Shown one piece after another: positions 3,010-56,989 of a stretch of DNA of 64,000 nucleotides (position 1 is its first letter; each line of letters opens with the position of its first letter). Where the stretch lies: positions 91,056 through 155,055 of the forward strand of contig JBDRSV010000024.1 of NCBI GenBank assembly GCA_043824495.1. Reading direction: 5' to 3'. Below the pieces are notes generated by a model. It was not told the origin of the DNA and searched no databases. It was given only the letters and a program-made list of their open reading frames with translations. Made by a program: the position numbers and the translations under genes. This DNA comes from Candidatus Aenigmatarchaeota archaeon. GTDB lineage: Archaea > Aenigmatarchaeota > Aenigmatarchaeia > QMZP01.

Positions 3010-3030
3010 TTGTCTAATTAAAGGGATATA
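3010..3030 (-). repeat. Junction motif copy 1 (TTGTCTAATTAAAGGGATATA), at the right edge of a GC-rich block
   Basis: Inverse orientation of the 21-bp motif that recurs at 17661, 20177, 36287 and 56969. A hairpin precedes it on the GC side (AAACAGG...CCTGTTT, 2970-3008). Confidence 0.6.
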
Positions 3031-3110
3031 GAAAGAAAAAATTAGAAATGTTCAGACATATAAACCTTATAAACTATAATGCTCAATAATTGGTATAATT
3101 CGAAAGGAAA

Positions 3111-3458
3111 ATGACATATATGAAAGCTAAGACAGATATTGGGGTTGGTTTGAAGCCACCTGAGCATAAATGTGAAGAAGAAAACTGTGCATGGCACGGG
3201 AAATTGCCTGTCAGAGGCAGAGTGTTTAGAGGTAGAGTTAGGGCCGCTAAATCTCAGAAAACAGCTATAATCGACTGGGGATTCCATAGATTCGTGCCTA
3301 AATACGAGAGATATGAGAGAAGAAAATCAAGAGTGACTGTTCATAATCCTGGCTGTATGAATGCTAAAGAAGGGGATAATGTTGTAATAGCAGAATGCAG
3401 ACCAATTTCAAAGACAAAGCACTTTGTAATTGTTGGTGTGCAAAAGGAAGGAAAATAA
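3111..3458 (+). CDS. rps17: 30S ribosomal protein S17 (uS17)
   Basis: The sequence matches the archaeal S17 fold and length, and L14 follows immediately. Confidence 0.85.
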   Translation: MTYMKAKTDIGVGLKPPEHKCEEENCAWHGKLPVRGRVFRGRVRAAKSQKTAIIDWGFHRFVPKYERYERRKSRVTVHNPGCMNAKEGDNVVIAECRPISKTKHFVIVGVQKEGK

Positions 3459-3459
3459 T

Positions 3460-3858
3460 ATGAAAGCGATATCAGCCAATATGACAAGGTGTTTGCCTGT
3501 GGGAGCAAGAATTAATTGTGTAGATAATTCAGGAGCAAAAATAATTAGAATAATTTCTGTAAGAGGATTTAAAGGTATACGAAGAACAATTCCTTCAACT
3601 GGTATTGCTGGTTTATTCCAGTGTAAAGTACTCAAAGGAAATGAGAAAGTTCGACATCTGGTTCATAAAGCTGTTATTGTAAGACAAACAAAAGAATTCA
3701 GAAGAGCAGACGGAACAAGAGTGTCATTCGAAGATAATGCAGCTGTATTAGTGGATGACAAAGGGGATCCAAAGGGTAATAGCATCAAGGGTCCTATTGC
3801 AAGGGAAGTTGTTGAGAGATTCCCAACAATTGGTAAGATTGCAAGCACAGTAGTTTAA
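3460..3858 (+). CDS. rpl14: 50S ribosomal protein L14 (uL14)
   Basis: Start MKAISANMTRCLPVGARINCVDNSGAK, with the NCVDNSGAK signature. The internal Met start gives ~132 aa. Confidence 0.9.
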   Translation: MKAISANMTRCLPVGARINCVDNSGAKIIRIISVRGFKGIRRTIPSTGIAGLFQCKVLKGNEKVRHLVHKAVIVRQTKEFRRADGTRVSFEDNAAVLVDDKGDPKGNSIKGPIAREVVERFPTIGKIASTVV

Positions 3859-4211
3859 TGGTGACTGACATGACAGATAACATAGATTTCAGTGAATTCC
3901 AAAAAGTTAATATAAGAATAGGAACAATTGAAGCAGCTGAGCCTGTTGAGAACACAGAAAAGCTGTTGAGGCTTCAAATAAGTTTAGGCGAAGAGAAGAG
4001 ACAAATTGTTTCTAGTATAGCAAAGGATTTCACACCTGATCAACTCATTGGTAAGCAAATACCAATACTTACCAACCTGGAGCCAAAAAGTTTCAGAGGA
4101 ATTGAAAGTCAGGGTATGATCTTACTGGTCGTAGAGGAACAAGATGGTTCAGAAAAGCTCACATTAATAACGCCTGAAAATAAAGTTCCTACAGGATCTA
4201 CAGTCAGGTAA
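3858..4211 (+). CDS. tRNA-binding domain protein (Trbp111/CsaA/EMAP-II-like OB fold)
   Basis: VNIRIGTIEAAEPVENTEKLLRLQISLGEE...IESQGMILL is the typical tRNA-binding OB domain pattern. It is inserted between L14 and L24. Confidence 0.6.
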   Translation: MVTDMTDNIDFSEFQKVNIRIGTIEAAEPVENTEKLLRLQISLGEEKRQIVSSIAKDFTPDQLIGKQIPILTNLEPKSFRGIESQGMILLVVEEQDGSEKLTLITPENKVPTGSTVR

Positions 4212-4216
4212 GAGTA

Positions 4217-4561
4217 ATGTCAAAAAAGAGAACAGTTGCAATATTGGTGGGGATATTAATGTTGTTATTGGTATTCCTGGTCGTACTACCGCTATCATTC
4301 GACTCTTCATTGGGAGCTGACTCATTACCTGATTCAGCTTTTTATGAAATTGAATTAGCAGGTGAGAACATAGCATGTGGTATATCACTTGATAGAAAAG
4401 CATGTTTGCTTGAACTTGCTAATGAAAGAGACCAAGAAGTGGAAGAGTTAAATATAAAACAAAGAAGATTATTCGATGAAGATGAAAAGCAACAGTATGA
4501 ATTGCTCATAATTAAAACTGAAAACGCAGCTTCGAGATTAAGAATCGAGGCACTAAAATAG
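4217..4561 (+). CDS. Hypothetical membrane-anchored protein
   Basis: N-terminal transmembrane helix (VAILVGILMLLLVFLVVLPL), and a complete ORF. Confidence 0.4.
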   Translation: MSKKRTVAILVGILMLLLVFLVVLPLSFDSSLGADSLPDSAFYEIELAGENIACGISLDRKACLLELANERDQEVEELNIKQRRLFDEDEKQQYELLIIKTENAASRLRIEALK

Positions 4562-4569
4562 GAGATCAA

Positions 4570-5094
4570 ATGAAACAGACATGGTCTAAAGACTGGTTGA
4601 GTTCAAAACAACCAAGAAAGCAAAGGAAATATAGAGCTAATGCACCGCTCCATATTAGACGTAAGTTTATTTCTGCACACTTGAGTGAAGATTTGAGAAG
4701 ACAATTCAGTAGAAGAGCATTCCCTCTAAGAAAAGGTGATCAAGTAGAAATTATGAGAGGTAGCTTCAGAGGTAAGAAAGGTCAGGTAACTCGAGTAAAC
4801 TTGTCAAAAAGTAAAGTTTACGTTGAAGGTGTAAACGTGAAAAAAGTGGATGGATCTGAAGTTGCAAGAGGAATCCAACCTTCCAACATTAGAATAATCA
4901 GTCTGAACCTTGACGATAAAAAGAGAAGAATCGCTGTAGACAGAACAAGAGACCAGAAAAAATCTGTAAAAGAAACAGTCAAAGAAGTGAAAACAGAAAA
5001 AGAAACAAAACCGGTAGCTAAACCAGATAAATCAAAAGTTCCAGCGAAAGAAGCTAAAACCACTCCTAAAAAATTAACAAAGGAAGGGAAATGA
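4570..5094 (+). CDS. rpl24: 50S ribosomal protein L24 (uL24) with a Lys-rich C-terminal extension
   Basis: KOW motif region RKGDQVEIMRGSFRGKKGQVTRV. The C-terminus is K/E-rich (KKSVKETVKEVKTEKETKPVAKPDKSK). Confidence 0.85.
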   Translation: MKQTWSKDWLSSKQPRKQRKYRANAPLHIRRKFISAHLSEDLRRQFSRRAFPLRKGDQVEIMRGSFRGKKGQVTRVNLSKSKVYVEGVNVKKVDGSEVARGIQPSNIRIISLNLDDKKRRIAVDRTRDQKKSVKETVKEVKTEKETKPVAKPDKSKVPAKEAKTTPKKLTKEGK

Positions 5095-5135
5095 GTTACT
5101 TTATGCTTAAATAGTTAATAATTAAGAGGTTTGAT

Positions 5136-5846
5136 ATGTCACATTTAAAGAGATACGCGATGCCAAGGAACTGGCCAGTTGAGGTCAAGAAGAAAATTTT
5201 TATAGTTAGACCTATGCCTGGGCCTCATGCTATAAATAGATGCATACCTCTAAAAATTCTGATTAAAGATTCTCTAGACTATGCAGATACATCAAGAGAA
5301 GCAAAGAAAATTATCACATCAGGAAAAGTTAAAGTTGATGGTGTGATAAGAAGAGATGTTAAGTTTCCTGTGGGATTGATGGATGTTATAGAATTGCCTG
5401 ATGCAAAGGAAGCTTATAGAGTTGTTCTCAATAGAAGAGGAATAATATTGAAGAAGATAAAATCTGATTCTGATAAGAAATTATGTTTAATCAAAAACAA
5501 AGTGAGTGTTAAAAAAGGACATTTTCAACTAAATCTTCATGACGGTAGAAATATACTCCTAAAAACAGGAGCTGACGCTTACAAAACAGGCGATTCCATT
5601 GTTATCCAACTTTCTGATAATAAAATACTCAAGCACTACAAACTAGAAAAAGGAGTACCAGCTTTCATATACGCAGGAAAGAATATGGGTGTCTCAGGAA
5701 CAATAAAGGAAATCAAAAAGAAGAAAACAATGGTAGAGAAATCTGTTATTATATTTAAGACTGATGAAAAAGAAATGGAAACCCTTAAGGGTTACGTTTT
5801 CCCAGGTTACTTGGATTTGGGTGAATCTGGAAAGGAGAGTAAATGA
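5136..5846 (+). CDS. rps4e: 30S ribosomal protein S4e (eS4)
   Basis: MSHLKRYAMPRNWPVEVKKKIFIVRPMPGPH is the typical S4e N-terminus. Sits at the archaeal operon position after L24. Confidence 0.9.
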   Translation: MSHLKRYAMPRNWPVEVKKKIFIVRPMPGPHAINRCIPLKILIKDSLDYADTSREAKKIITSGKVKVDGVIRRDVKFPVGLMDVIELPDAKEAYRVVLNRRGIILKKIKSDSDKKLCLIKNKVSVKKGHFQLNLHDGRNILLKTGADAYKTGDSIVIQLSDNKILKHYKLEKGVPAFIYAGKNMGVSGTIKEIKKKKTMVEKSVIIFKTDEKEMETLKGYVFPGYLDLGESGKESK

Positions 5847-6352
5847 CAGAAAACCCAATGAGACAGATAAGAATAGAGAAGGTCACTGTAAACATGGGAG
5901 CAGGTGAAGCCGGAGCTAAGTTAGATAATTCTGTTAAGCTTATTGAAAAATTAACAGGAGCTAAAATTGTTATTACAAAAACACATAAAAGAACCACATT
6001 CGGTGGACCAAAGAAAAAACCTATTGGAGCCAAAACAACTCTAAGAGGTAAAAAAGCTGAAGAATTCTTAGAGCTAATGTTAAAAGCTGTTGAAAATAAA
6101 TTAAGAAAAAAACAATTTGATGTTAATGGAAATTTCTCTTTTGGTATAAAAGAATACATTGATATACCAGGTGTCAAATACGATCCAGATATTGGAATTA
6201 TGGGAATGGATATCTGTGTAACATTACAAAGACCTGGATATAGAGTTAAGAATAGAAAAATAAATCAAAGAAAGATTGGGATGAAACACAACATTAAAAA
6301 AGAGGACTCCATGGAATTCATGAAAACTAGATTTAAGGTAGAGGTAGTTTAG
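5843..6352 (+). CDS. rpl5: 50S ribosomal protein L5 (uL5)
   Basis: Start MRQIRIEKVTVNMGAGEAG, with GMDI and the usual L5 pattern. Operon position fits. Confidence 0.9.
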   Translation: MTENPMRQIRIEKVTVNMGAGEAGAKLDNSVKLIEKLTGAKIVITKTHKRTTFGGPKKKPIGAKTTLRGKKAEEFLELMLKAVENKLRKKQFDVNGNFSFGIKEYIDIPGVKYDPDIGIMGMDICVTLQRPGYRVKNRKINQRKIGMKHNIKKEDSMEFMKTRFKVEVV

Positions 6353-6574
6353 ATGTCATTTTTAAAAGTTAGAAAACAGATAGAGAAAAAACCTATCAAG
6401 GTTGCAAGATATGATAAATTTAACAAACCAAAAAAGAGAAAATTCGGAAAAAATATTCATAGATGCGCAAAATGTAACAGAACAGGCGGGATGATAAATA
6501 AGTACGATTTACATTATTGTAGACAGTGCTTCAGAGAACAAGCAGAAAAATTAGGATTTGTAAAATATAGTTAG
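6353..6574 (+). CDS. rps14: 30S ribosomal protein S14 (uS14, zinc-binding type)
   Basis: C-terminal C-x2-C...C-x2-C zinc-binding motif (CAKCNRTGG...YCRQCFRE). Operon position between L5 and S8. Confidence 0.8.
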   Translation: MSFLKVRKQIEKKPIKVARYDKFNKPKKRKFGKNIHRCAKCNRTGGMINKYDLHYCRQCFREQAEKLGFVKYS

Positions 6575-6582
6575 GAGTTAAT

Positions 6583-6969
6583 ATGAGACACGATTTAATT
6601 TCAGATGCATTATGCATAATAAAAAACGCAGAATTCATTGGTAAAAAGGAGTGTAAGGTTCCTGTGTCTAAGTTAATTAAAGGTATGTTGACAATCATAA
6701 AAACCAATGAATACATTAAGGATTTCAAGTTAACACATGAAGAGAAAGGAGATTATTTTCATGTTCATCTTGCAGGTAAAATAAATGATTGTAATTCTAT
6801 TAGACCACAATACTCATTCCAAGTAAAAGACGTTGTTAAATGGGAAAAAAGATTCCTTCCAGCAAGAGAGATAGGAATTTTAATTATTACCACATCAAAG
6901 GGCATAATGGATCAAAGACAAGCAGAAAAAGAAAAATCCGGTGGTAGATTACTGGGTTATGTTTACTAG
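6583..6969 (+). CDS. rps8: 30S ribosomal protein S8 (uS8)
   Basis: N-terminus DLISDALCIIKNAE and C-terminus GGRLLGYVY, typical of S8. Confidence 0.85.
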   Translation: MRHDLISDALCIIKNAEFIGKKECKVPVSKLIKGMLTIIKTNEYIKDFKLTHEEKGDYFHVHLAGKINDCNSIRPQYSFQVKDVVKWEKRFLPAREIGILIITTSKGIMDQRQAEKEKSGGRLLGYVY

Positions 6970-6977
6970 GTGATTAT

Positions 6978-7241
6978 ATGATAACAAGCAGAGACATTAA
7001 ACATGCAGAAGAGCAAAAAAAATTGTTGATTGGAACAAAAAGTATAGTGAAATCACTAAAAATCGGGGAACTGGAAAGAGTCATTTATGCTTCTAATTGC
7101 CCAGAATCCACATTGAAGGATATAAATTATTATTTAAAATTAACTAAAACTGAAGTGGAATTATTCGATGGAAATTCTTCAAAACTAGGTGAAACCTGCG
7201 GTAAACCCTTTAATATACTTATGATCGCAATAAAGAAGTAG
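6978..7241 (+). CDS. rpl30e: 50S ribosomal protein L30e (eL30)
   Basis: LLIGTKSIVKSLK...VIYASNCPE...LGETCGKPF matches the L30e family. Confidence 0.8.
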   Translation: MITSRDIKHAEEQKKLLIGTKSIVKSLKIGELERVIYASNCPESTLKDINYYLKLTKTEVELFDGNSSKLGETCGKPFNILMIAIKK

Positions 7242-7247
7242 ATAAAT

Positions 7248-7652
7248 ATGCCAATAAAACTAGAAACAATGACAATTAGAACTATTGCAACATTTGAAAA
7301 CGTAACGAACGTTCATGCGGTGGATTGCATAATTGCAGACGATTACATGTGTTTTCTTGTTGATCCTGAAAAAGTTGGCTTAGCAATTGGCAAAAACGGA
7401 TCAACAATAAAACAATTAAGAAAAATGTTTAATAAACAAATAAAAGTGTTCGGTTACTACAGAGATCCAGAATCTCTTGTAAAGGGGGTAATACCCGAAG
7501 TAATTGAAATAGAACAAAATAGTGGAGCTTTGGTAGCTACTCTCCCAAGCGGAGAAAAATTATCTATAATAGAGAAAAACAACAAGAATATTAAGATACT
7601 AAAGGAAATATTAAAGAGACATTTTTCCATCAAGACATTAAAACTCAGATAA
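7248..7652 (+). CDS. nusA: Archaeal NusA-like transcription factor (KH domains)
   Basis: KH motif VGLAIGKNGSTIKQL, ~135 aa. It follows L30e as in archaeal RNAP operons. Confidence 0.75.
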   Translation: MPIKLETMTIRTIATFENVTNVHAVDCIIADDYMCFLVDPEKVGLAIGKNGSTIKQLRKMFNKQIKVFGYYRDPESLVKGVIPEVIEIEQNSGALVATLPSGEKLSIIEKNNKNIKILKEILKRHFSIKTLKLR

Positions 7653-7657
7653 GATAT

Positions 7658-8287
7658 ATGATTCAAATGAAAATTAAGATAATAAAAAAATCTGGAAATG
7701 ACCTTGAATTCACAGCTGAAAACATCAGTATACCTTTAGCAAATGCACTTAGAAGGATAATGATTTCTGAAGTGCCAACATTATCAGTTGACTGGATTGA
7801 TATTCATAATAATACATCTGTTTTGTTTGATGAGATGATATCTCACAGAATTGGTTTAATTCCAATAAAATTCAACCCTGATAAATTTAACTTTATAGAT
7901 GATTGTAAATGTGAAGGCAAAGGATGTACATTGTGTCAAGCAGTGTTCTCAGTGACCAAGAAAGGTCCATGTATTGTTTATTCGGGGGACATGAAACCTG
8001 CAAACAAAGAAGCAATTTTCACAGATCCTAAATTCCCTATAGTTGAACTTCTAGAAAATCAAGAAATCAAACTAGATGCTATTGCAAGACTTGGAATAGG
8101 ACAAAATCACTCAAAGAATCAAGCAGCTATAGCAGCATATGAATATGATGGTGACGGAAAAGCATTGAAATTTAAATTTAAGATAGAGTCTGTATCAGGT
8201 TTGAAACCTGATTACATTGTTGAAAAAGCAGCACATATATTAGAATTAAAAGCAGCGGAATTTAAGAAGGAAGTCAATAAGATATGA
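7658..8287 (+). CDS. rpoD: DNA-directed RNA polymerase subunit D (Rpo3/RpoD)
   Basis: ANALRRIMISEVPTLSVDWIDIHNNTSVLFDEMISHRIGLIPI is the classic Rpo3/Rpb3 N-terminal motif. It also has a Cys cluster, CKCEGKGCTLC. Confidence 0.8.
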   Translation: MIQMKIKIIKKSGNDLEFTAENISIPLANALRRIMISEVPTLSVDWIDIHNNTSVLFDEMISHRIGLIPIKFNPDKFNFIDDCKCEGKGCTLCQAVFSVTKKGPCIVYSGDMKPANKEAIFTDPKFPIVELLENQEIKLDAIARLGIGQNHSKNQAAIAAYEYDGDGKALKFKFKIESVSGLKPDYIVEKAAHILELKAAEFKKEVNKI

Positions 8288-8496
8288 GCGCTCAATTGGT
8301 TGTATCCTGGATCCTTGGTAGCATATTCATGCTAGGAGGGGTATGGATAATAACAAACCTCGAGATGAATCTTGGGGTGACCGAGTCCTCTTATATTGTC
8401 GCTCTTATTATAGCATTTATCATGTTCCTTCTAGCTGGTTTCCTATGGATTTCGGTTGCCGTGGGTACAGAAAAACAGCCGCATCACCACCATTAA
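8284..8496 (+). CDS. Small two-TM membrane protein ending in HHHH (hypothetical)
   Basis: Two hydrophobic helices, and the ORF ends ...EKQPHHHH before the stop. The start overlaps the rpoD stop (ATGA). Confidence 0.3.
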   Translation: MSAQLVVSWILGSIFMLGGVWIITNLEMNLGVTESSYIVALIIAFIMFLLAGFLWISVAVGTEKQPHHHH

Positions 8497-8606
8497 TTCC
8501 GAAATGAGCTATTCCTGCATTTATAAATATTTATATCAATAAGAACCAATATACTCACAAAATCTATATAAATCCTTGAGCTGAATAAGCTCATACAAGT
8601 GATATC

Positions 8607-9029
8607 ATGGGACAATTTGGAGCACGAGAATTAAAGAAAAAGAGGAAAAAGTTTAGATGGAAATCTACAAAACACAAGAGACATCAGCTAAAATTATGGA
8701 AGAAATCACCTCTTAGAGGAGCTCCTATCGGAAAAGGTATAGTTCTTAAGAAGAAGGGTATTGAACAAAAACAGCCACATTCTGGTATTATTAAAGCTGT
8801 CAGAGTACAGATAGTTAAAAACGGTATTAATGTTACAGCATTTGTACCAAAAACAGGTGCAATCAAGCATATAGACGAGCATGACGAAGTAACAATAGAA
8901 GGAATGGGCGGATCTCAGGGTGGAGCTGTCGGTTCTATGCACGGTATCAAGTTTAAGGTTTTCAAGGTGAATAATATTTCTTTGAAAGAAATTCTAAAGG
9001 GGAAAAAACAGAAGTCTAAGGGCGGTTAA
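8607..9029 (+). CDS. rps12: 30S ribosomal protein S12 (uS12)
   Basis: The [27 protein letters not shown] region fits S12, and S7 follows. Confidence 0.85.
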
Positions 9030-9031
9030 TT

Positions 9032-9622
9032 ATGTCAATATTACTTTTTAATAGATGGGATACGAGCAAAGTTGAAGTCCAAGATCCTAGTCTTAAGAGA
9101 TATGTTAATTTGGAACCTGTTATAGTACCTAGAACTAACGGTAAAATGAGAGGTCAGCACAAATATAAAGTTAATATAGTTGAAAGATTCACAAACAGAC
9201 TCATGGTTAATGGCCATAGAGGAAAAAAACATAAAATCACATCAGGTCATCATGTTGGAAATACAGCAACACTTTTCAATCACATGAAAGCTGCTTTCAC
9301 AGAAATAGAAAACAAGACAAAGAAAGATCCTGTGCAAGTTCTTGTACACGCAATAGAGAATTCTTCAGTAGTTGAAGAGGTTGCTTCTTACAGAATGGGT
9401 GGCATAATGGCTAGAAAAGCTGTTGTAGTGTCTCCTCAGAGAAGGCTAGACCTAGCATTAAGATACCTCACGCAAGGAATCTACAAGAAGAGCTTCAAAA
9501 ACAGGCAACCTCTCTCAAGAGTCATCGCAGATGAGCTCATAGCTGCTGCTAACAACGACACAAAAGTCTTCGCAATCCAAGAGAAAAACAGAATAGAAAG
9601 AGAAGCCGAAGGCGCTAGATAA
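9032..9622 (+). CDS. rps7: 30S ribosomal protein S7 (uS7)
   Basis: Length and motifs fit archaeal S7 (VERFTNRLMVNGHRGKK...). Order is S12 then S7. Confidence 0.9.
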   Translation: MSILLFNRWDTSKVEVQDPSLKRYVNLEPVIVPRTNGKMRGQHKYKVNIVERFTNRLMVNGHRGKKHKITSGHHVGNTATLFNHMKAAFTEIENKTKKDPVQVLVHAIENSSVVEEVASYRMGGIMARKAVVVSPQRRLDLALRYLTQGIYKKSFKNRQPLSRVIADELIAAANNDTKVFAIQEKNRIEREAEGAR

Positions 9623-9708
9623 TTTTAATGTGCTATTTTTAGTGTCAGTAATTTCGTATAACAGGTAGCTCACACTACTTTTTTCTAAAAATAAAAGAAA
9701 TTGGGTAT

Positions 9709-10134
9709 TTACCCAATGTAATTAGCTTGTCCTGCACCTTGAGGTTTCAAGACTGGGATACCTATTGGTGGTGGTAGCTGTAAATCGTCAGCCATGTAAG
9801 CTATCTTTAGAAGACATCTCCTGAATAAGTGATTCAAGATTTCTATGTTTATTTCTTCTGGTAATTTTTTGTCTTTTTTCCAAGCTTTCATTACTATTGC
9901 TAGTGTTTTTGGAAGATAGATAACTTCTCCGCCTACCTTGATGTCGGCCAAATCAGGTGCATATTTTGTCTCAAACTCGAATGTTACGGACATTCCTTTT
10001 TTGTTAAGTGTTCCGATGTTTACTTCTTTTACACCTATGATTTTTGGTGTTGAGTTTACTTTAATTTCACCCTTAATTGGCTTTGGTTTTTTATTTGCCT
10101 CAAATGAGGTAAATGCGAGTCCTATGATTGGCAT
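9709..10134 (-). CDS. Hypothetical protein
   Basis: Complete 141-aa ORF in an AT-rich region. No family recognised. Confidence 0.4.
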   Translation of the reverse strand: MPIIGLAFTSFEANKKPKPIKGEIKVNSTPKIIGVKEVNIGTLNKKGMSVTFEFETKYAPDLADIKVGGEVIYLPKTLAIVMKAWKKDKKLPEEINIEILNHLFRRCLLKIAYMADDLQLPPPIGIPVLKPQGAGQANYIG

Positions 10135-10248
10135 ACTAATCTCCTTAATATTATGTATACTATTACATATTGTTATTTAAATGCATATTATGCTCTCATT
10201 TACGAATATTTCTTCATATATTTATATTTCCGTACACAAATCTATACT

Positions 10249-10782
10249 ATGAATATTCTCATACCAATGGCAGAGGGCTTTGAGGAAATAGAAGCTATTA
10301 CAGTTATAGATGTTTTCAGGAGAGCTGGAATCAATACTATCAGCGTCGGTCTTCCTGGTACAATGGTCACAGGAGCTCACGGCATCAAAGTTTTTGCTGA
10401 TAAGAGACTTGATGAAGTGAATATAGACGATTTTGATGCTCTTGTTCTTGTTGGTGGAGATCCTGGATACCACAATCTAGGTAAATCACAGAAGATAATA
10501 GAAGCCATCAAGAGGTTTGAAGCAGCAAAGAAACCTGTAGGAGCTATATGTACTGCGCCAGCTATTCTAGGTAAGCTAGGTCTACTAGACGAAAGAAGAG
10601 CAACAATATATCCCGGAATGGAGAGAGAGATACCAAGACCAAGAGGAAACAGAGTCATAGACGATGATAATATAATAACATCACAAGGACCTGGAACAGC
10701 TATGGAATTTGCTATCCAGATTGTGGATAAACTCAAGGGTCCTTCAATAGCGGGTAAGGTAAGAAGGGAACTGGTGGCTTAA
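10249..10782 (+). CDS. DJ-1/PfpI family protein
   Basis: MNILIPMAEGFEEIEAITVIDVFRRAG, and the nucleophile-elbow Cys in VGAICTAPAILG. Confidence 0.8.
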   Translation: MNILIPMAEGFEEIEAITVIDVFRRAGINTISVGLPGTMVTGAHGIKVFADKRLDEVNIDDFDALVLVGGDPGYHNLGKSQKIIEAIKRFEAAKKPVGAICTAPAILGKLGLLDERRATIYPGMEREIPRPRGNRVIDDDNIITSQGPGTAMEFAIQIVDKLKGPSIAGKVRRELVA

Positions 10783-11007
10783 ATGAGCGGATTAACTGCA
10801 GCCGAGAAAGAAATTCTAGAAATAATGTCAAAGAGACTTTTAGTAACAACAAGAGAGTTGAACAAATTCTTGAGCTCTGATAAATACAATGGAGGAACTG
10901 ATTTTAGTTTACAGAGACTTGTAGATCAAGGATACTTAGAAAGAGTAGAATCCTTAGGGACAACTGTTGTTGTAACTCAGAAAGGCTTGAGAGCTCTAAA
11001 AGCTTGA
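10783..11007 (+). CDS. Small winged-helix DNA-binding protein (hypothetical)
   Basis: 74 aa with an HTH-like region, immediately after the DJ-1 gene. Confidence 0.4.
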   Translation: MSGLTAAEKEILEIMSKRLLVTTRELNKFLSSDKYNGGTDFSLQRLVDQGYLERVESLGTTVVVTQKGLRALKA

Positions 11008-11070
11008 GTAAAGATCTTTTTATAGTAAAATGACATATATAGAAGTACTTCGATCGAATGATCTTAGAAT

Positions 11071-11233
11071 AGCCCCGTAGTGTAGTGGTCAAAGTTTGAC
11101 AACCTGTGTGCTCGCATGTAGTTGTCTACACGACTAGGCATATCGGGCCTTGGTTTTCGCAACTAAGGATCTGAGCGAGAAATCGCTGTGAAAGAGGATA
11201 CCCGGTGACTGCGGTTCGAATCCGCACGGGGCT
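11071..11233 (+). tRNA. Intron-containing tRNA (~162 nt). The anticodon is not resolved; candidates are UUG (Gln) or UGG (Pro).
   Basis: Acceptor stem AGCCCCG/CGGGGCT, U8. T-arm TGCGG-TTCGAAT-CCGCA. Because it is ~85 nt longer than a standard tRNA, one or more introns are implied. Confidence 0.55.
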
Positions 11234-11266
11234 ATCATTTTTATTGTATACTTACAATTATTTCTT

Positions 11267-12952
11267 ATGTATCCACTAGAAAAGTTCAGAGACGATATTA
11301 AATCAGTGATAGCTGAATACAAAAAGATAAAGAAAGATGAAGTTGTTTTAGCAAAACCTCCTCAAGGTATTCCAGCAGATTTAGCCTATCCATGTTTTGG
11401 CTTGGCTAAAAGAGAAAAAAGAGATCCAGTAGAATTTGCTCTCACAACAGTGGAGAAAATAAAACCTAGAGGATTGATATCCAGAATAGAAGCTAATGGT
11501 CCATACATAAACTTCTATGCAGACTGGAGTAAGATGGGAAGCTTAGTTTTGAATGGAATAATAAAAGAAAAAAACGCTTATGGTAAAGGAAAGAAAAAGA
11601 ATAAGATTCTAGTGGAACACACTTCAGCCAATCCAGATGGTCCTTTACATCTAGGTCATTTCAGAAACACTGTTATAGGAGACTCTTTAGCAAGAATATT
11701 ACGATTCTATGGTCATGAAGTAAAAACAGATTTCTATGTAAATGATACAGGAAGACAAATAACTCTAGCTTCTTGGATGTATTTACAAAATGAGCCTAAA
11801 CCTAAAGGTAAGCTAGATTGGTGGGTTTATGACTTGTATTTCAAATGTAACCAGAAATTGAAAACCAATCCAAGTATAGAAAATGAAATAACAGATATGA
11901 TGCTTAAGTTTGAAAATGGAGATAAAGAACTAAGAAAAACACATGAGTTCATAGTTGATCAATGCTTGAAGGGGCATAAAGAAACTCTAGAAAGCATTGG
12001 AATTAAAATCGATAGATTCTCAAAGGAAAGCGAATTCCTATTCACTGGAAAAGTTGATGATGTTTTGAAGAAGATACTCAAAACAAAGGAAGGAAAATCG
12101 TCTGGTAAAAGAGTATGGGTTGACTTGAAACAATTCAAAATAGAAAGAGAATTCACTCTAACAAGATCTGATGGAACAACAATTTATCCAGCAAGAGATT
12201 TGGCATATCATGCAGACAAGTTTGAAAGAGCAGATCAAAACATAAATATTATAGGAACAGATCAGAAATTTTACTTCAAGCAGTTAACATCAACTCTTGG
12301 TTTACTATTTCCAAAGAAAACAGAGAATTATCATGTTTTGTTTTATGAGTTTTTGCTGTTGCCAGAAGGAACAATGTCTACACGTTTAGGTAAATTTATT
12401 TCAGTTGATGAACTTGTAAAGAAATTTACAGAAACTGCAAGAAAAAGTATAGAAATAAAAAATCCAAAATACTCAACTAAATTCAAGGATGATATAGCTA
12501 AGATGGTTGGTATAGGTGCATTGAAGTATGCAATGATAAAAGTTTCGCCTGAGAAAACATATTCTTTCAGTGTGGATGACAGCCTAAATTTCGAAGGTAA
12601 CACGGCACCTTATATTCAATATACTCATGCAAGAGCTTCTTCGATACTTCAGAAAGCTGGTAGTAGCAAACATGTAATCAAGTATATAGGAGAAGAAGAG
12701 AAACAAGTCATGAACAAGTTAATGGAATTCCCATATGCAGTGAAAAGAGCTTCTAAAGAATATAGACCACACATAATAGCTAACTATGCATATGATCTAG
12801 CAACGTCTTTCAATAACTTCTATCACTCGGTTCCTGTACTGAAAGCAGAAAAAGACTTAATAGGAACAAGACTAGCTATAGTAAAAGCTGCTCAGATAGT
12901 TTTGAAAACAAGTCTAGATCTTCTAGGTATAGAAGCACCTGATAAGATGTAG
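11267..12952 (+). CDS. argS: Arginyl-tRNA synthetase
   Basis: NPDGPLHLGHFRN is the class I HIGH motif of the ArgRS type. 561 aa, ending in ...DKM as in ArgRS. Confidence 0.9.
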   Translation: MYPLEKFRDDIKSVIAEYKKIKKDEVVLAKPPQGIPADLAYPCFGLAKREKRDPVEFALTTVEKIKPRGLISRIEANGPYINFYADWSKMGSLVLNGIIKEKNAYGKGKKKNKILVEHTSANPDGPLHLGHFRNTVIGDSLARILRFYGHEVKTDFYVNDTGRQITLASWMYLQNEPKPKGKLDWWVYDLYFKCNQKLKTNPSIENEITDMMLKFENGDKELRKTHEFIVDQCLKGHKETLESIGIKIDRFSKESEFLFTGKVDDVLKKILKTKEGKSSGKRVWVDLKQFKIEREFTLTRSDGTTIYPARDLAYHADKFERADQNINIIGTDQKFYFKQLTSTLGLLFPKKTENYHVLFYEFLLLPEGTMSTRLGKFISVDELVKKFTETARKSIEIKNPKYSTKFKDDIAKMVGIGALKYAMIKVSPEKTYSFSVDDSLNFEGNTAPYIQYTHARASSILQKAGSSKHVIKYIGEEEKQVMNKLMEFPYAVKRASKEYRPHIIANYAYDLATSFNNFYHSVPVLKAEKDLIGTRLAIVKAAQIVLKTSLDLLGIEAPDKM

Positions 12953-13083
12953 AGTGATTAAACGGTAAGCATAATCAAGCTAATAGCACTTATTATAATT
13001 ATTTATTTAGTAGTTTCTATTTTCCAATGTTACTGGCCTGCGAGTATGCTTGAAGAAGTCTTATGTATTTATGGTCCACTATT

Positions 13084-13614
13084 CTAGACACTATTCCACA
13101 ATCTCTGAATTAGTTGATTCATTGTAATCTTTTTCTGGAACAGTTCTTTTACATCATTCTTTTCAATCTGCACTCTTATCTGTGCCTTATTCTCTAAATC
13201 ATTCTTATAAGATTCAACTCTTGCAACTAACTCTGGTTTTATCGCTTCATTTTCAGCTTCTACTGCAAATTTTCTTACAAAAGAAGCATCCATAGCTAAA
13301 AGATCATTTGCAATTCGTTCTCTGTAAAGAGACTTAACCATTTTTGTTATTGTAGCTGCTTTTTCTACAGTAGCTGAATCAGATGCTTTCTGTACCACAA
13401 AAGCTTCTACACTCCCTGCACTAACAGGAACAGCTTCTTCTATACCTAAAGTATCTCTGTAAATACTCTCTTTCTGTGCAGATGTTGTAGCTTGATGTTT
13501 TATTACATCAGATGATCTTATGTCTACTAGAGCAAATCTTCCAGAAGCTTGTACAAGAGACATTGATAAAACTAACAAAATTCCAATTATCATCAAAGTT
13601 AATTTATAGTTCAT
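13084..13614 (-). CDS. Secreted hypothetical protein
   Basis: Signal peptide MNYKLTLMIIGILLVLSMSLVQASG. Its start overlaps the upstream gene (operon). Confidence 0.45.
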   Translation of the reverse strand: MNYKLTLMIIGILLVLSMSLVQASGRFALVDIRSSDVIKHQATTSAQKESIYRDTLGIEEAVPVSAGSVEAFVVQKASDSATVEKAATITKMVKSLYRERIANDLLAMDASFVRKFAVEAENEAIKPELVARVESYKNDLENKAQIRVQIEKNDVKELFQKKITMNQLIQRLWNSV

Positions 13615-14410
13615 TGAACCACTCCGTTAATTTTATTGAGTGTGCTGGATATGTTTTATCCACCACCAATATTTTTTTCTTCTCTAAATTCTTAAGCGCC
13701 GCTGCAAGACTAGATTTTGATATTCCCGATTTCTTTTCCAGTTCACTTCTCCTGATAACTCCTTTATTTTCTACGACTATATTTACAATCTTCTTTTCAT
13801 TCACTGATAATGTTTTTATGACCGATTCCTTTTTGGATAACCCTGGTTTCATTTTGTGTATGATTAATCCAATTCCAATGATTATGATAATACCAATAGC
13901 TGCAAACACGAATATAATTGGGTCGGTAGTCTTTGGTAGTTCCTTTTCAAATGAATATGATATTTCAATTGAGTTTATTCCTGCCCACCGAAGTTCTGTT
14001 ATATCTCCAGTTTGTATGTAAGCTGAAGGATTTGATGAAATTATTTTTGTGTTGTCAGGCATCAAAATAACAATGTTGTTATTTTGTAATCCTGTATCCA
14101 TATTGAATTTCCAGTTACCGTCTGTTTTTGATGTGAGTAGAGATGTTGTGTACAAAACAACAGCTTCTCTAGTTTCTCCAATTGACACTTCTATATAATC
14201 ATCATGCACTAGATGCAACCCGCCTCTTACTAGTACCTCATCCACATCTGCTGGGATTGGTAGACGATAAATACCTGATCCTGTTATTGTTATGCTTACT
14301 AATGTGTTTCCATTATCTTCTATGATTATGTAATATTCGGTTGCTTCTTGCGCATACACTGTCGGTATCAGCGCGAGCAATCCTATCATGATCAGCAATA
14401 CAACTTTCAT
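13604..14410 (-). CDS. Membrane-anchored protein with a C-terminal winged-HTH (possible membrane-bound regulator)
   Basis: N-terminal signal peptide, a central TM helix (IIFVFAAIGIIIIIGIGLII), and a C-terminal EKKSGISKSSLAAALKNLEKKKILVV HTH-like region. Confidence 0.5.
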   Translation of the reverse strand: MKVVLLIMIGLLALIPTVYAQEATEYYIIIEDNGNTLVSITITGSGIYRLPIPADVDEVLVRGGLHLVHDDYIEVSIGETREAVVLYTTSLLTSKTDGNWKFNMDTGLQNNNIVILMPDNTKIISSNPSAYIQTGDITELRWAGINSIEISYSFEKELPKTTDPIIFVFAAIGIIIIIGIGLIIHKMKPGLSKKESVIKTLSVNEKKIVNIVVENKGVIRRSELEKKSGISKSSLAAALKNLEKKKILVVDKTYPAHSIKLTEWFNEL

Positions 14411-14475
14411 ACATGAAAGTTAATTTTTGCCTACTTAAATATGACCTGGGGGAAGGGTTCCCCAGGTATATAATT

Positions 14476-39324: not shown

Positions 39325-39329
39325 ATATC

Positions 39330-47034: not shown

Positions 47035-49560
47035 TTATTTTATGATATGAATTGCAACTGATTTTTCATATCCTTTTATGAAATCTTCTACCATGTCTCT
47101 TGCTGTAGTGTCTGAATGTTGTATTGGTGGATGCTTCATGAAATAAGCTGATGGACCTTCTAAGTAGCCTCCGATACCTCTATCTTTTGCTATTTTTGCA
47201 CAGCGAATACCATCTATTACTACACCAGCAGAATTTGGAGAATCTTCTACAGAAAGTCTGAGTTCTAAATTAAGAGGAACATCTCCGAATTTTCTTCCTT
47301 CCATTCTAATGAAACAAATCTTGTTATCTTTCTGCCATGGAACATAATCACTTGGTCCAATATGAATATTTTCTGGTTCTAGTGGTATTGGTAATTGAGA
47401 CTGAACAGCTTCTGTCTTGCTGATTTTTTTGCTCTTGAGTCTTGATCTCTCAAGCATGTTTAGGAAATCTGTGTTATGAACTAATATGTTTGAACAAATA
47501 AACCGTTCAAATGGTTTTGTGCTTATGTCATAAACATACACATCTTTTAATTTTATTTTTCTAATGTTTTTTATCTTAAGGAAGCGAGTATCGCCTGTAC
47601 ATAATTGTTTAATTTTTTCTCTTTCAAACTCACTTTTAACTTTATCCAATTGAGAAAGAACTATATGAGTTCTAATTGATCCGTGTTTGTACCACGTTGT
47701 TGATTTTATTTTCCATTTTTTCAAAAGTTTTATATTTGGTATTCGATGTGTTCCATAACGTTTTAATTTATTATTAGTATTGAGCATTGCCTTTTTCTTG
47801 TAATCTTGTAAAAATCCTACTTTATTTATGAACAATTCCATATCAATTTTTGATGATATTAATCCATGCCAAGCATACCCTAGTTTGCTGTTATATGCAG
47901 TTCTAGTGCTACTATATCTTTCCTTGAAAATTGTTGAATTTATTCCTAATCTCAAAAACAATGTCTGTATATCATTCAAAAGGTCACGAGAAACAGATGT
48001 CCATCTTATCTGTTTTCCTGTAACACCACCATCACCACTTAAATAACCTCTTAAAACTAATGATATTTGTCTATCTGATAAATTAAAAATCCATTCTGGT
48101 ATCCGTTTTGTATAAGCATTTCCCCCTAAACCAATAGCTAACTTAAATATTTTAGACAATATTTTTGAATGAATCCTTACACTAATACCGTCATTTCTAA
48201 CGCTATATCCAATATTAAATCTATCTGTTAAACTATCTATAAGGTACATACACTCAGGTTCAGCACCGCATGCAATTTCTATATTAGATGAACCTTCTCT
48301 ATCATAATTACCATCTGCAATCCATAAACCAACCAACTGTAAAAGATCATCTGTAATTGGGAATTTAACAGGAATTTTTATTTCAGGATGACCACGGACA
48401 TTTATATGACCGTCTGATACACCATCAACTAATAATTTATTACTATATGGACTTAGATCTATACTTTCAATTTCTTCTGATTTAGCATGTGGTAACACTC
48501 TAGGAACAGCAATATACGTTTCATTTCCTTTTAGTATTTTTACAGGGATTTCATTTAATATACCGTCATCGCTTAATGTAAAGACATTATGATCCCCTGT
48601 GATTTTTATTGTCCTACCTTCTTCGGTAGTTATTTCATAAATAGGTTCAGATACCTTATGTCGTATTAGTGCATTTATATCTGATAGGACAACGTTATAA
48701 TTATCATTTATAGTAAAACATCGCATATTTTCATTAATTTCTTTCATAATTACAATGTCTTTTCCATCAGATCTTTTCTTACCATAAAGCTCCAAATAAG
48801 AGTCTATCAAATCTCCAATTTTAACCCGCTTTAATTGATTGTTTATAACTACAGGAACCTCCTGATCTCCTGTTACACTGTTCCCCCCAGTATTCAATTG
48901 ATATGTCCTATCAATCTTTATTCCTCTATCAGAGAATAACTTTGTTAAAACTCTATGTGTAATTGTTGCACCTAATTGACTCTTAATATCATCACCAATA
49001 ATAGGAATTCCTTTTTCCTTGAACTTATCACCCCATTCAGGATTTGATGCAATGAAAACAGGCATACAGTTAATGAATCCAACACCTGCATCTAAACAAG
49101 CTTGTGCATAGAACTTAGTTGCTTCTTCACTTCCAACAGGCATGTAATTAATTAGCACATCAGCCTGACTATCCTTCAACACTTGAACAACATCCACATT
49201 TTTTTTCCCTGATTTTTTAAATCTATTATCTTCAGGATAATTATTCATATGATCTGCTACACCATCTAACACAGGTCCCATCTGAACTTCCACTCCAATG
49301 TGAGGAACATCCTTATAAAATATAGTAGTGTTGTTAGGCTTTGCGAATATTGCTTCCGACAAATCTTTATCTACCTTTCTCTCATCAATATCAAAAGCAG
49401 CTACTGGTTTAATATCAGATATTTTATATTCACCTAGAATATTATGCATTAGACCTGATACTGGTTTACTAGAATCTACATCTTTGTAATAGAATAATCC
49501 CTGAACAAGACTAGAACAACAATTACCAACTCCAGCAAATGCAACCTTTATTTCTGTCAT
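47035..49560 (-). CDS. ino1: myo-Inositol-1-phosphate synthase containing an intein
   Basis: The N-terminus [17 protein letters not shown] and the exteins ...YQLNTGGN / [20 protein letters not shown] match MIPS. A 469-aa insert carries LAGLIDADG motifs. Confidence 0.85.
47473..48879 (-). mobile_element. Intein with a LAGLIDADG homing endonuclease domain, inside ino1
   Basis: Starts SVTGDQEV (block A-like) after GGN. LAGLIDADG-type motifs LVGLWIADG and LRGYLSGDG. Ends ...NILVHN followed by Thr (+1). Confidence 0.7.
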
Positions 49561-55014: not shown

Positions 55015-55055
55015 ACGGAGTAATAATAAGAAATAATTTAAATAAGTTTTCCATG

Positions 55056-55337
55056 CTAAACAGAACCTATAATGATTAGAGCTACTACGATAACCAAAGC
55101 TAGCATAAGCATAAATATCTGTTTCCATGAACTGAAAAAGAATTTTGCCATGAAGAATAATATTATCAGTATTAGTACACCGGCTAGAATAGTTCCTTCT
55201 ATACCTATGTTACTAACAGGGTTGAGAGAACCCATTAATTCTAGAAATAGACCAAAGATACCACTCAGTGTACTCATAGTGTTCCCTATAACAAGTTGTA
55301 TCATTTCAAGTATCACAATCAATGGAGCATCTGCCAT
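55056..55337 (-). CDS. Small membrane protein (hypothetical)
   Basis: Three hydrophobic helices. Confidence 0.3.
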   Translation of the reverse strand: MADAPLIVILEMIQLVIGNTMSTLSGIFGLFLELMGSLNPVSNIGIEGTILAGVLILIILFFMAKFFFSSWKQIFMLMLALVIVVALIIIGSV

Positions 55338-55362
55338 TGATTAATAATTAGTCTGAGTGCAT

Positions 55363-56547
55363 TTATTTCTTTGTGAGGATCTCAACTATGTCTCCATCCT
55401 TGAGCTCGTACTCTGCACCCACTTTCTTACGATCTGTCTTCATTCCACCTATGAATTTATCTGCTAAATCTGTGTGGATTTTTCCAGCGAACTGTTTCAA
55501 ATGAGTTCCTCTAGGAACTAAATGTACGTCTGGTAGAACATTTCCATCTTTATCTGTCATTTTACCTATGTTTGTAACTGGATAAACAGCTATCATATCG
55601 AGTGTTTCAAAAACAGTATGATTCAATATATTTTGTATACCAGTAGATTCATATTTAACAAGAATTTTTTCTTTTATGAACTCTAAAGCTGAGATTTGTT
55701 TTGGTGTTAGTCTATGCGCAACAACTATCTCAAAGTCTTTATCTCCTGGATTATATTTGATGAAACCATGCTCATTAGCTTCTCTTAAAGCTAGTTCACA
55801 CTCGGCTGTACATGGAATTATATGTTTATGTTTATCATGTAAAAGTTTGAAATTCTTCTGACCATCCTCTGTATCTATTTTATTTCCTGCTATCACAATA
55901 GGTTTGTTTCTTTTTCTTAGCTCACTTACTAAATGTATTAAATGATCTTCTTTTGTGTGCACTTCTATGTCTAATTTCTTAACTTCGTCTCTAACAGTTT
56001 CATAATCTAATTGTAAACCTGACAATTGTTCGTAAATTAAATCTTCTAGTTTTGCATCAGTTGTTTCAGCTTTTTTAGAGAGTTGTTTCCAGTTGTTTTT
56101 TAATATTTGAAACATCCAATAATCTATTTCTCTAGGTAAGAAATGGATATCTTCTTCAGGATCATGCGAACCTGCTTTTACAGGATTACCTTCCCCGTCT
56201 GTTCCTCCAGATAGATCAACTACATGAATTAGTCCTGATGCTGTCATAATGTCTGTTAGAAATTGATTACCTAAACCCTTTCCCTTATGTGCATCCGGAA
56301 CAAGTCCTGCTATGTCTATAAGTCTGACTGGTATGTATCTAATTCCGTCAATACATTTAGAATTCTTAGGCTTGCAAGTAACTCCTTGTGTCTTACAAGG
56401 ACATTCTGCTGTTACGTAAGCAACACCTTGGTTAGGTTTGATTGTTGTGAATATTCTGTTGCTTATTTCTATGTCTATCAGAGTAGCTGCTTTGAAGAAT
56501 GTTGATTTACCTGTGTTTGATTTACCTACAACCCCTATTTGGATCAT
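55363..56547 (-). CDS. Obg/YchF-like GTPase with a C-terminal TGS domain
   Basis: G1 GVVGKSNTGKST, G3 DIAGLV, G4 NKID, and a C-terminal TGS domain (ELKDGDIVEI). Confidence 0.8.
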   Translation of the reverse strand: MIQIGVVGKSNTGKSTFFKAATLIDIEISNRIFTTIKPNQGVAYVTAECPCKTQGVTCKPKNSKCIDGIRYIPVRLIDIAGLVPDAHKGKGLGNQFLTDIMTASGLIHVVDLSGGTDGEGNPVKAGSHDPEEDIHFLPREIDYWMFQILKNNWKQLSKKAETTDAKLEDLIYEQLSGLQLDYETVRDEVKKLDIEVHTKEDHLIHLVSELRKRNKPIVIAGNKIDTEDGQKNFKLLHDKHKHIIPCTAECELALREANEHGFIKYNPGDKDFEIVVAHRLTPKQISALEFIKEKILVKYESTGIQNILNHTVFETLDMIAVYPVTNIGKMTDKDGNVLPDVHLVPRGTHLKQFAGKIHTDLADKFIGGMKTDRKKVGAEYELKDGDIVEILTKK

Positions 56548-56582
56548 ATGATATATTTATTTAGTAAATTTAAAAACGATTC

Positions 56583-56951
56583 ATGGGCTTCAATTCCGGT
56601 AACCAGTTCAGAATTGCAGGTATACTTTTGATATTGGAAACTATAGCTCTTCTATATTTCTCTATCGTTCCGTATGCATCTATAGACACTGGGATAGAAG
56701 CATTGCGCCTCGGAGACTTCGAACACTTGATGGCTTATCTCATCTATGCTCTTTTAGCTGAGCGAGTATTAAGTCAGACAAAATTCAAGAAGCATAGAGT
56801 TATACTAGCATTCTTAATTGCAGCAGCTTTTGGTGGAATAAATGAGGTTATACAATCTTTCATTCCTTTGAGAGAAGCAGATATGATTGATTTAGCCTTT
56901 GATACTGTTGGTTCTGTCATCGGTAGCTTTTTGCTTGGTCTTAAGAAATGA
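56583..56951 (+). CDS. VanZ-like membrane protein
   Basis: Four TM helices, with a GGINEVIQSFIPLREADMIDLAFDTVG motif like the VanZ family. Confidence 0.5.
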   Translation: MGFNSGNQFRIAGILLILETIALLYFSIVPYASIDTGIEALRLGDFEHLMAYLIYALLAERVLSQTKFKKHRVILAFLIAAAFGGINEVIQSFIPLREADMIDLAFDTVGSVIGSFLLGLKK

Positions 56952-56968
56952 TTTTTTATAACCTTCTA

Positions 56969-56989
56969 TATCCCTTTAAATAGACAATA
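56969..56989 (+). repeat. Junction motif copy 5 (ATATCCCTTTAAATAGACAAT), at the left edge of a GC-rich block
   Basis: Forward orientation, followed by the hairpin GGGGAAAGTGTGA...TCACACTTTTTCTCCCC. Confidence 0.6.

Follow-up and report, generated by a model that had tools for sequence, protein, structure and literature searches.

Results

Six GC-rich blocks in AT-rich archaeal DNA

The DNA analyzed here is a 64,000-nucleotide stretch from a Candidatus Aenigmatarchaeota archaeon (contig JBDRSV010000024.1, positions 91,056 to 155,055; hereafter the window, with positions counted from its first letter), in which GC-rich blocks are joined to AT-rich DNA at copies of one short sequence, termed the junction box. 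The AT-rich DNA of the window codes for archaeal ribosomal proteins, ArgRS, a HerA-like ATPase and an intein-containing inositol-phosphate synthase, and the host is an AT-rich Aenigmatarchaeota archaeon. The blocks are multi-gene segments of 1.8-9 kb with 0.5-20 kb of host DNA between them. Long open reading frames (ORFs) are present in five of the six blocks, and genes supported by Pfam in three (A, B and D).

Block A occupies positions 1-3008 (forward strand) and begins approximately 960 nt before the window, being GC-rich from 4300 to 8270 in locus L034. It interrupts a ribosomal-protein operon between rpp29 and rps17, and its cargo, consisting of an M20 peptidase, an M32 carboxypeptidase and a 163-aa ORF, is directed entirely toward box 1. 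Block A2 (15263-17050, reverse strand) comprises a tail, a hairpin and ORFan ORFs of 368 and 183 aa that read toward box 2. Similarly, block B (17682-19700, reverse strand) contains a tail, a hairpin and a single gene at 17755-19629, whose 624-aa product has an FlgD_ig domain and a type IX secretion system (T9SS) sorting tail. Block C (20197-23750, reverse strand) consists of a tail, a hairpin and 3.5 kb of DNA with no ORF in any of the six frames, all three stop codons being frequent. Block D extends from 27300 to 36286 (forward strand), with GC content rising from about 27050; it holds at least nine co-oriented genes and ends in a hairpin at 36247-36283. Its genes are mostly ORFans (at least eight secreted or membrane proteins, with signal peptides or transmembrane segments), the last encodes an FHA protein, and several strong internal terminators and paralogue repeats are present. 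Finally, block E (56989-59090, reverse strand) comprises a tail, a hairpin and ORFan genes of 300, 181 and 154 aa directed toward box 6.

A conserved junction box at each AT-to-GC switch

Both strands of the window were scanned with the query ATATCCCTTTAAATRGACAAT, allowing up to three mismatches, and the chance expectation was calculated from shuffles. Six copies were found against 0.01 expected, and each marks a switch from approximately 0.33-0.35 GC to 0.46-0.55 GC, so that the motif which a previous sequence-only reading had placed at the ends of GC blocks is genuine. The copies are box 1 at 3009-3029 (reverse strand, ATATCCCTTTAATTAGACAAA), box 2 at 15242-15262 (forward), box 3 at 17661-17681 (forward), box 4 at 20176-20196 (forward; the most diverged, with three mismatches), box 5 at 36287-36307 (reverse) and box 6 at 56968-56988 (forward; a perfect match to the consensus), and they differ from one another by 0-3 mismatches. 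All five copies of the sequence-only reading were recovered, three of them with coordinates shifted by one base, but box 2 had been overlooked. This copy forms the left end of the intermediate-GC segment 15300-17050, which had been listed among the edges without a motif; for the far ends of the blocks that description was correct.

Alignment of the flanks showed that the conserved unit extends beyond the 21-mer to about 30 nt, YTATATCCCTYTAAWTRGACAAT-ATAAA, with nothing further common to the copies. Within the box, the invariant positions ATCCC ... GACA enclose a variable AT-rich center, a pattern more suggestive of a site for protein binding than of a simple TATA box. A scan with a position weight matrix (PWM) added only one weak copy, box', at 17222-17242 on the forward strand (score 17; 0.2 matches expected at a score of at least 9). 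In both the motif and the PWM scans, the far ends of the blocks in the window yielded no box copy, whether direct, inverted or partial, and inspection of the sequences there revealed no other common motif, target duplication or repeated tail sequence. Because the far ends carry neither the motif nor a fragment or duplication, the element is one-ended.

Terminator hairpins and the orientation of the cargo

A stem-loop on the GC side of each copy had already been described, and it was seen for all six boxes, with 14-22 pairs at a distance of 2-6 nt from the box. These hairpins lie at 2965-3004 in block A (forward strand; terminator-like and followed by a 4-nt tail to 3008), 15265-15301 in block A2, 17687-17723 in block B, 20203-20266 in block C and 56992-57032 in block E (all four on the reverse strand), and at the position given above at the end of block D (forward strand). 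When the window copies were combined with copies at other loci (described below) into a set of 15 boxes, the order of box, short T-rich tail and hairpin was found at every one, including 6/6 window blocks. The tail, 2-6 nt in the window and up to 8 nt at other loci, is fused directly to the box. In the direction of the genes, the arrangement is last gene, hairpin, T-rich tail and then ATTGTCTAWTTAAAGGGATAT, and the cargo genes read toward the box wherever neighboring ORFs could be called. At the opposite end, the blocks start 20-330 nt ahead of their first genes, which are preceded by strong Shine-Dalgarno sequences.

The hairpins themselves are unlike one another in sequence, length (21-69 nt) and spacing in 15 of 15 cases, with 9-22 pairs. 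The 55 nt on the cargo side of the 15 boxes fold with a mean energy of -16.4 kcal/mol, compared to -11.4 (sd 4.5) for random windows of the GC blocks, a difference of about 4 standard errors. This energy comparison replaced a control that scored any 9-pair hairpin within 75 nt, which was uninformative, 45% of random windows passing it. The hairpins agree with bacterial intrinsic terminators in having a GC-rich stem-loop and a T-tract within approximately 40-60 nt of the stop codon. Zixibacterial homologues of the block B gene have a like hairpin and T-tract 30-40 nt past the stop codon, without a box. Since donor-type genes end in a hairpin and T-tract but lack the box, the hairpin is a part of the cargo, unlike the box, and the hairpins look like the own intrinsic terminators of the cargo genes.

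Based on these results, several features expected of a transposon were not borne out. Terminal inverted repeats had been proposed, but no block has the motif at both ends, and its orientation is fixed relative to the cargo genes, at their 3' end; the apparent inward facing of the motif is a by-product of gene direction. The suggested pairing of 17661 with 36308 as one composite element would enclose the box at 20176, AT-rich host-type genes such as that of the HerA-like ATPase, and oppositely oriented blocks. The hairpins had been taken for subterminal transposon hairpins, but all differ in sequence and resemble the terminators of cargo genes and of their zixibacterial homologues. Finally, target-site duplications and a transposase inside the element, as a mobile element would have, are absent; the cargo ORFs are peptidases, a T9SS protein and ORFans.

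The junctions in an independent assembly and in other genomes

Four of the six junctions are covered by an independent (Logan) assembly of run SRR26275509, in which two contigs match the window with 100% identity, over 1-17112 and over 17094-29629. These contigs stop and overlap by 19 nt at 17094-17112, at the far end of block A2; the break may reflect population heterogeneity or a repeat at the junction.

A pattern scan of a genome collection covered 596 Gb, for which about 35 chance matches were calculated, and matches were accepted only with the flanking consensus and a hairpin. Most matches were due to chance or unrelated, as in a conserved Sphingobacterium gene. Among those accepted, a metagenome-assembled genome (MAG) of a Black Sea Aenigmatarchaeota (L025) has a box 13 nt past fen1, followed by a hairpin and a 650-bp block of 51% GC in a genome of 35% GC. 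A contig of a relative of the window organism (L026) carries a box by the region of the myo-inositol-1-phosphate synthase gene, and the same architecture occurs in L027 and L032. GC-rich archaeal MAGs (L010, L020 and L022) also carry the box, L020 having two boxes back to back with 15 nt between them, and in another archaeal MAG (L003) two copies lie 1 kb apart. In the syntenic relative L041, a diverged box lies directly past rpp29. Pairs of boxes have a further 20-35 nt in common on the AT side. Because the box is found in AT-rich and GC-rich Aenigmatarchaeota MAGs and contigs from other studies, it is, on this distribution, native to the Aenigmatarchaeota lineage and not to the donor.

Three further loci (L030:1117, L031:1415 and L033:1028) share a unit of at least 1.4 kb that consists of a box, a hairpin and genes of 113, 99 and 62 aa. 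This unit starts sharply at (A)GAACTAAACGCCCGGGG, 194 nt from the box on the non-cargo side. Its flanks are unrelated (a homocysteine methyltransferase, a BFN nuclease and an HU-like fragment), and its hosts may be bacterial or archaeal.

It is highly improbable that the blocks are assembly or binning artefacts, in which Zixibacteria and Aenigmatarchaeota reads were joined chimerically at a common k-mer. The contig is metagenome-assembled and the independent contigs do break within the window, as such joining might suggest; however, the copies are only 21-30 nt long and differ by up to three mismatches, which makes them too short and too variable for k-mer joins, and the motif is missing from the bacterial relatives of the cargo. 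Furthermore, the junction architecture recurs across unrelated studies and assemblers, and block A lies inside a ribosomal-protein operon on a contig that was reproduced base for base. The choice left open by the sequence-only reading, between biological junctions and chimeric joins, thus falls to the former: the copies differ, the independent assembly is identical over four junctions, and the motif recurs elsewhere.

Host and donor

The nearest homologues of the M32 carboxypeptidase have 84% and 74% amino acid identity and lie on bacterial contigs of uniformly 59% GC that also encode complex I and AlaRS; many of the source-named M32 homologues, among those listed, are from Zixibacteria. The homologues of the T9SS protein are likewise zixibacterial, with a best match of 62%. 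A tetranucleotide comparison of AT and GC blocks, which had been recommended, gave a clear separation. With a Zixibacteria contig, the composition-corrected profiles of blocks A, B, D and E show correlations of 0.69-0.81, but with host DNA their correlations are about 0-0.3; host segments reach 0.82-0.90 among themselves and 0.78-0.83 against the syntenic relative. Judged by nearest homologues and tetranucleotide signature, the GC blocks are foreign and Zixibacteria-like, in agreement with the earlier view of GC-rich bacterial-type cargo in an AT-rich archaeal chromosome. Approximately one third of this 64-kb stretch of DPANN DNA is unameliorated Zixibacteria-like DNA, each piece of it joined via the same short sequence. 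None of six Zixibacteria-like contigs contains the box. No donor as close as >90% identity was found, the best identities being those given above for M32 (84%) and the T9SS protein (62%), which are too distant for breakpoint mapping.

The closest relatives are about 70% identical in S17, and their gaps between rpp29 and rps17 are filled with differing genes. This gap is an insertion hot spot, its contents varying among Aenigmatarchaeota relatives (a methyltransferase, a HAD hydrolase, an AMP-binding enzyme and small ORFans) at the loci compared, L034:3380-8380, L040:4309-5156, L041:7909-10001 and L043:280-3157.

Taken together, the junction signature is real, reproducible and apparently undescribed, and it ties an archaeal ~30-mer to recently captured bacterial genes.

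Promoter likeness of the box and the neighboring Zn-ribbon/HTH gene

The promoters of host genes in the window have the form AAAnCTTTATAAAnCC, and a second AT-rich element often comes after it. In the order of its parts, a TATA element, CCC and an AT-rich element, the box is built like such a promoter. A crude PWM made from the host promoters, read toward the cargo, places four of the six boxes among the best 0.05-0.2% of all positions in the window. In the PWM alignment, YTATAT corresponds to the TATA element, followed by CCC and pointing into the cargo, with the predicted start at the junction of box and hairpin. Read outward, the box gives TTTRYA-17 nt-TATAAT, and TTTGCA-17-TATAAT was flagged at 17686-17658. 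It is plausible from these matches that the box is a host promoter, with the best fit facing the cargo, and after integration it may drive antisense transcription into the foreign genes.

The gene next to box 3 (17250-17639, forward strand) encodes a 129-aa protein with a Zn-ribbon and a helix-turn-helix (HTH), corresponding to the N-terminal DNA-binding module of IS6-family transposases without the DDE domain. Free-standing proteins of about 100 aa are its nearest relatives, and relatives of about 290 aa are IS6 (DDE_Tnp_IS240) transposases. The weak copy box' lies at the position expected for the leaderless promoter of this gene, so that box' and box flank the gene in direct orientation. In L003, a 46%-identical homologue abuts a box. 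No remnants of the gene were found in the other AT spacers of the window. The box is probably bound by the neighboring Zn-ribbon/HTH protein, the only candidate trans-factor found.

Further observations on the window

No match to IntI or Phage_integrase was found among the approximately 70 ORFs scanned in the window, and no HUH or TnpB gene was found in it. Over the whole 64 kb, no tRNA gene was found, and Rfam models gave no match either at gathering thresholds or at E<=1. Structured RNA as the cause of the GC-rich blocks was rejected on the grounds that there are no tRNA or Rfam matches and that five of the six blocks have long ORFs. A viral origin was likewise dismissed, two IMG/VR scans having given a single chance match.

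For block C, which has no Rfam match, recoding was considered and set aside, stops of all three kinds being frequent in the six frames and blastx against the collected homologues blank. Within it, positions 22150-22850 form a 700-nt non-coding chain of about 14 unrelated, closely set GC-rich hairpins, with a minimum free energy z-score of -10.3; many of these hairpins have T-rich tails on the forward strand, which is opposite to the cargo of the box at 20176. Block D contains three pairs of intergenic repeats (28160-28235/32682-32752, 29328-29378/30239-30289 and 31971-32031/32607-32668) that are 80-84% identical. They include a common hairpin followed by TTGACAAT(A/T)AAC and accompany paralogous ORFan genes of 281 and 454 aa.

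Between the oppositely oriented blocks C and D, the AT-rich segment 23950-26515 encodes a HerA-clade ATPase and a 182-aa coiled-coil protein. The ATPase (680 aa) shows weak similarity to CedD, the ATPase of Ced DNA import, as well as to defence HerA, and has a C-terminal region resembling a winged HTH. A gene for a Cas4-like PD-(D/E)XK nuclease (36936-37589) lies on the AT side of box 5, about 630 nt from it, and no CRISPR array or other cas genes were seen. Positions 39330-45038 form an apparent defence and mobile island with a 908-aa Type IIG restriction-modification enzyme, a 339-aa protein that matches the PADLOC candidates PDC-M38A and PD-Lambda-5_A, and an insertion sequence (IS) with a DDE_Tnp_1 transposase at 44028-45038. 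The myo-inositol-1-phosphate synthase gene at 47035-49560 contains a LAGLIDADG intein, and an intein-less allele is present in the contig L026:34-1152.

Discussion

A reusable docking site as the tentative reading

Any explanation of the junctions must meet four facts: one conserved end, its constant position on a terminator tail, cargo in the sense orientation, and occurrence at many loci in several genomes with differing cargo. The reading that we favor, tentatively and with somewhat less than even confidence, is that the 21-mer is the core of a ~30-bp Aenigmatarchaeota-specific junction box that serves as a reusable, one-ended docking site for foreign DNA. From the anatomy of the junctions we infer the following course of joining. 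Foreign nucleic acid, most likely single-stranded DNA, would be imported from a Zixibacteria-like partner, and trimming of the foreign strand from its 3' end would be halted by the stable terminator hairpin. The leftover T-rich tail would then pair with ATAAA at the inner edge of the box, where the strand would be joined. Finally, the opposite end of the block would be sealed by illegitimate joining. Pairing of the tail with ATAAA would pick the sense strand, and consequently the genes would always be directed toward the box. The box would outlive each event and thus be reusable, which would explain blocks made of several parts and the tandem arrangement of the boxes at 15242, 17661 and 20176. 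DNA is preferred over RNA because block D is a native cluster of 9 kb that contains internal terminators and repeats of paralogues.

Several observations weigh against such a docking site. None of the boxes in the window has a recombinase, reverse transcriptase or full transposase associated with it, and the link to the Zn-ribbon/HTH gene comprises two loci and one weak box. Free docking sites should exist, but an unoccupied box was found neither in the 42 kb of host DNA here nor in about 45 kb of related operon loci. In the same gap between rpp29 and rps17, the box of L041 and that of the window are at opposite ends and in opposite orientations, which agrees no less well with a box borne by the cargo than with one that is resident at the site. 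In the unit shared by L030, L031 and L033, the box is internal, set back from the sharp boundary in all three contexts. In addition, the pairing of the tail with ATAAA is limited to 3-5 nt.

A dedicated and previously undescribed system of cross-domain capture would go further: a docking box together with a domesticated IS6-type Zn-ribbon/HTH protein would take up single strands from a Zixibacteria partner, the sole requirement being a 3' terminator hairpin with a T/U tail. We consider this extended proposal doubtful at present.

Alternative explanations

The main rival to the docking site is that the box is the conserved end of a mobile unit, attC-like or IS-end-like (for example, an IS6-type remnant), and that cassettes of cargo, hairpin and box are moved by a transposase or recombinase acting in trans; we regard it as unlikely. 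The recurrence of the L030, L031 and L033 unit in three unrelated flanks with a sharp boundary is what such a cassette would leave, as are the differing ends and orientations of the box in the rpp29-rps17 gap of two relatives and the additional 20-35 nt common to box pairs on the AT side. The direct-oriented boxes at 15242, 17661 and 20176 recall arrays separated by IS26 copies, and the neighboring ORF is the DNA-binding module of IS6 transposases. However, the bacterial donors lack the box, so its attachment to the cargo would still have to take place within the archaeal lineage; no second end, target-site duplication or DDE domain is found near the boxes; box' and box surround the Zn-ribbon/HTH gene as direct and not as inverted repeats; and conservation in the window ends about 10-35 nt into the AT side, not at 194 nt as in L030. 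A purely regulatory role, in which the box would be an antisense or restart promoter and an operator for the Zn-ribbon/HTH protein, duplicated or selected beside foreign DNA to silence it or to keep host genes expressed, seems decidedly unlikely. The architecture does resemble that of host promoters, with the predicted start at the junction; box' directly precedes a gene, and outward from the TTTRYA-17 nt-TATAAT arrangement a host gene begins 40-100 nt downstream in at least four loci. Yet selection alone cannot set a 30-mer 0-8 nt from a terminator tail in 15 of 15 independent loci, about 25 upstream regions of host genes inspected in the window lack a box (only the weak box' is box-like), and in at least three loci the AT-side gene runs toward the box, which leaves nothing to restart. 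The back-to-back boxes of L020, 15 nt apart, are also difficult to reconcile with this role. The box might still serve secondarily as a promoter for antisense transcription or restart.

The route by which the cargo arrives may also be conceived as RNA-mediated capture, in which a nick at ...ATAAA-3' in the box would prime the reverse transcription of intrinsically terminated bacterial transcripts, or of fragments from their 3' decay, in the manner of target-primed reverse transcription. Such a route would explain the 3' ends and the orientation as well as the docking site does: the cargo end is an intrinsic RNA end, a hairpin with a short U-rich tail, the orientation is strictly sense in all scorable cases, and the primer-like ATAAA complements U-tails. 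The start of the blocks 20-330 nt before a first gene led by a Shine-Dalgarno sequence also agrees with it, as do the roughly 14 non-coding, terminator-like hairpins of block C, which repeated 5'-truncated captures might leave, although this chain is wrongly oriented for the box at 20176. We nevertheless judge the RNA route to be quite improbable. The 9-kb block D, with its strong internal terminators and paralogue repeats, is unlikely to represent a single transcript, no reverse transcriptase is present in the window, and the far ends may contain promoter regions. We know of no precedent for bacterial RNA entering an archaeon, which we also count against it.

Comparison with known systems

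The closest analogue of the docking site is the integron, whose attI site recombines with the folded attC hairpins that promoterless cassettes bring, and integrons have been reported in Archaea (Ghaly et al. 2022, PMC9668308). Both have a reusable site where foreign genes gather, a hairpin of variable sequence at the 3' end of the cargo, a fixed orientation of genes relative to the site, array-like layouts and cargo from another domain. On the other hand, there is no IntI gene in the window, and the R''/R' cores (RYYYAAC/GTTRRRY) are missing, the hairpin bases being A-tracts and T-tracts and only the 3' flank being conserved. The blocks here reach 9 kb with many genes and are scattered among AT-rich spacers, whereas integron cassettes are contiguous, short and single-gene; the hairpins here are ordinary intrinsic terminators. 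A search for attC cores gave no match, and the motif is missing from the supplementary files of PMC9668308.

The translocatable units of IS6/IS26 and the one-ended capture of ISCR/IS91 resemble the junctions in carrying variable cargo on a single conserved sequence, in having direct-oriented copies that part cargo segments, and in the IS6-type Zn-ribbon/HTH module encoded beside the box. They differ in that no complete IS, DDE or HUH domain, inverted repeats or 8-bp duplications are found here, the conserved sequence is just ~30 bp, and the junction is always on a terminator tail. Membership in IS6/IS26 was rejected, the ORF at 17250-17639 having only the Zn-ribbon/HTH, with no DDE_Tnp_IS240 between 14-20-bp inverted repeats. 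HUH elements (IS200/IS605, IS91/ISCR and Helitron) were also rejected, the hairpin sequence not being conserved in the 15 copies and an HUH gene being absent.

Homology-facilitated illegitimate recombination, reportedly described by de Vries and Wackernagel in 2002 in naturally transformable bacteria, is similar in that base pairing anchors one end of the foreign DNA and illegitimate joining at varying positions fixes the other, but its anchor is at least 150 bp of true homology located anywhere, compared to a T-tail of 3-5 nt at one 30-bp site. Target-primed reverse transcription of LINEs (long interspersed nuclear elements), which turns cellular RNAs into processed copies, shares a copy whose 3' end is the 3' end of the RNA, an A-rich, primer-like target, a variable 5' end and sense-only orientation. 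It differs in that no reverse transcriptase and no target duplications are seen here and one block is too long and too rich in terminators for a single RNA; to our knowledge, LINE-type target-primed reverse transcription is not known in archaea.

Implications

Bacterial gene transfer has shaped archaeal evolution, and the route of integration is hardly known beyond the recently reported archaeal integrons. Bacterial transfers into Aenigmarchaeota have been judged ancient (~42% identity), and bacteria have been dismissed as partners (PMC8407114). The blocks described here contradict that view, being far closer to bacterial genes and compositionally unameliorated, and they suggest a specific association of Aenigmatarchaeota with Zixibacteria. 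With junctions of this kind, the statistical inference of horizontal gene transfer becomes a matter of discrete sites open to experiment. Should the box be a docking site, it would provide a simple marker for captured genes and their donors in any metagenome and a tool for directed insertion in archaea. If the dedicated capture system holds true, bacterial intrinsic terminators would be universal 'attC-like' ends, and the boxes would be a physical record of the association of DPANN archaea with bacteria and of a general route for genes from bacteria to archaea.

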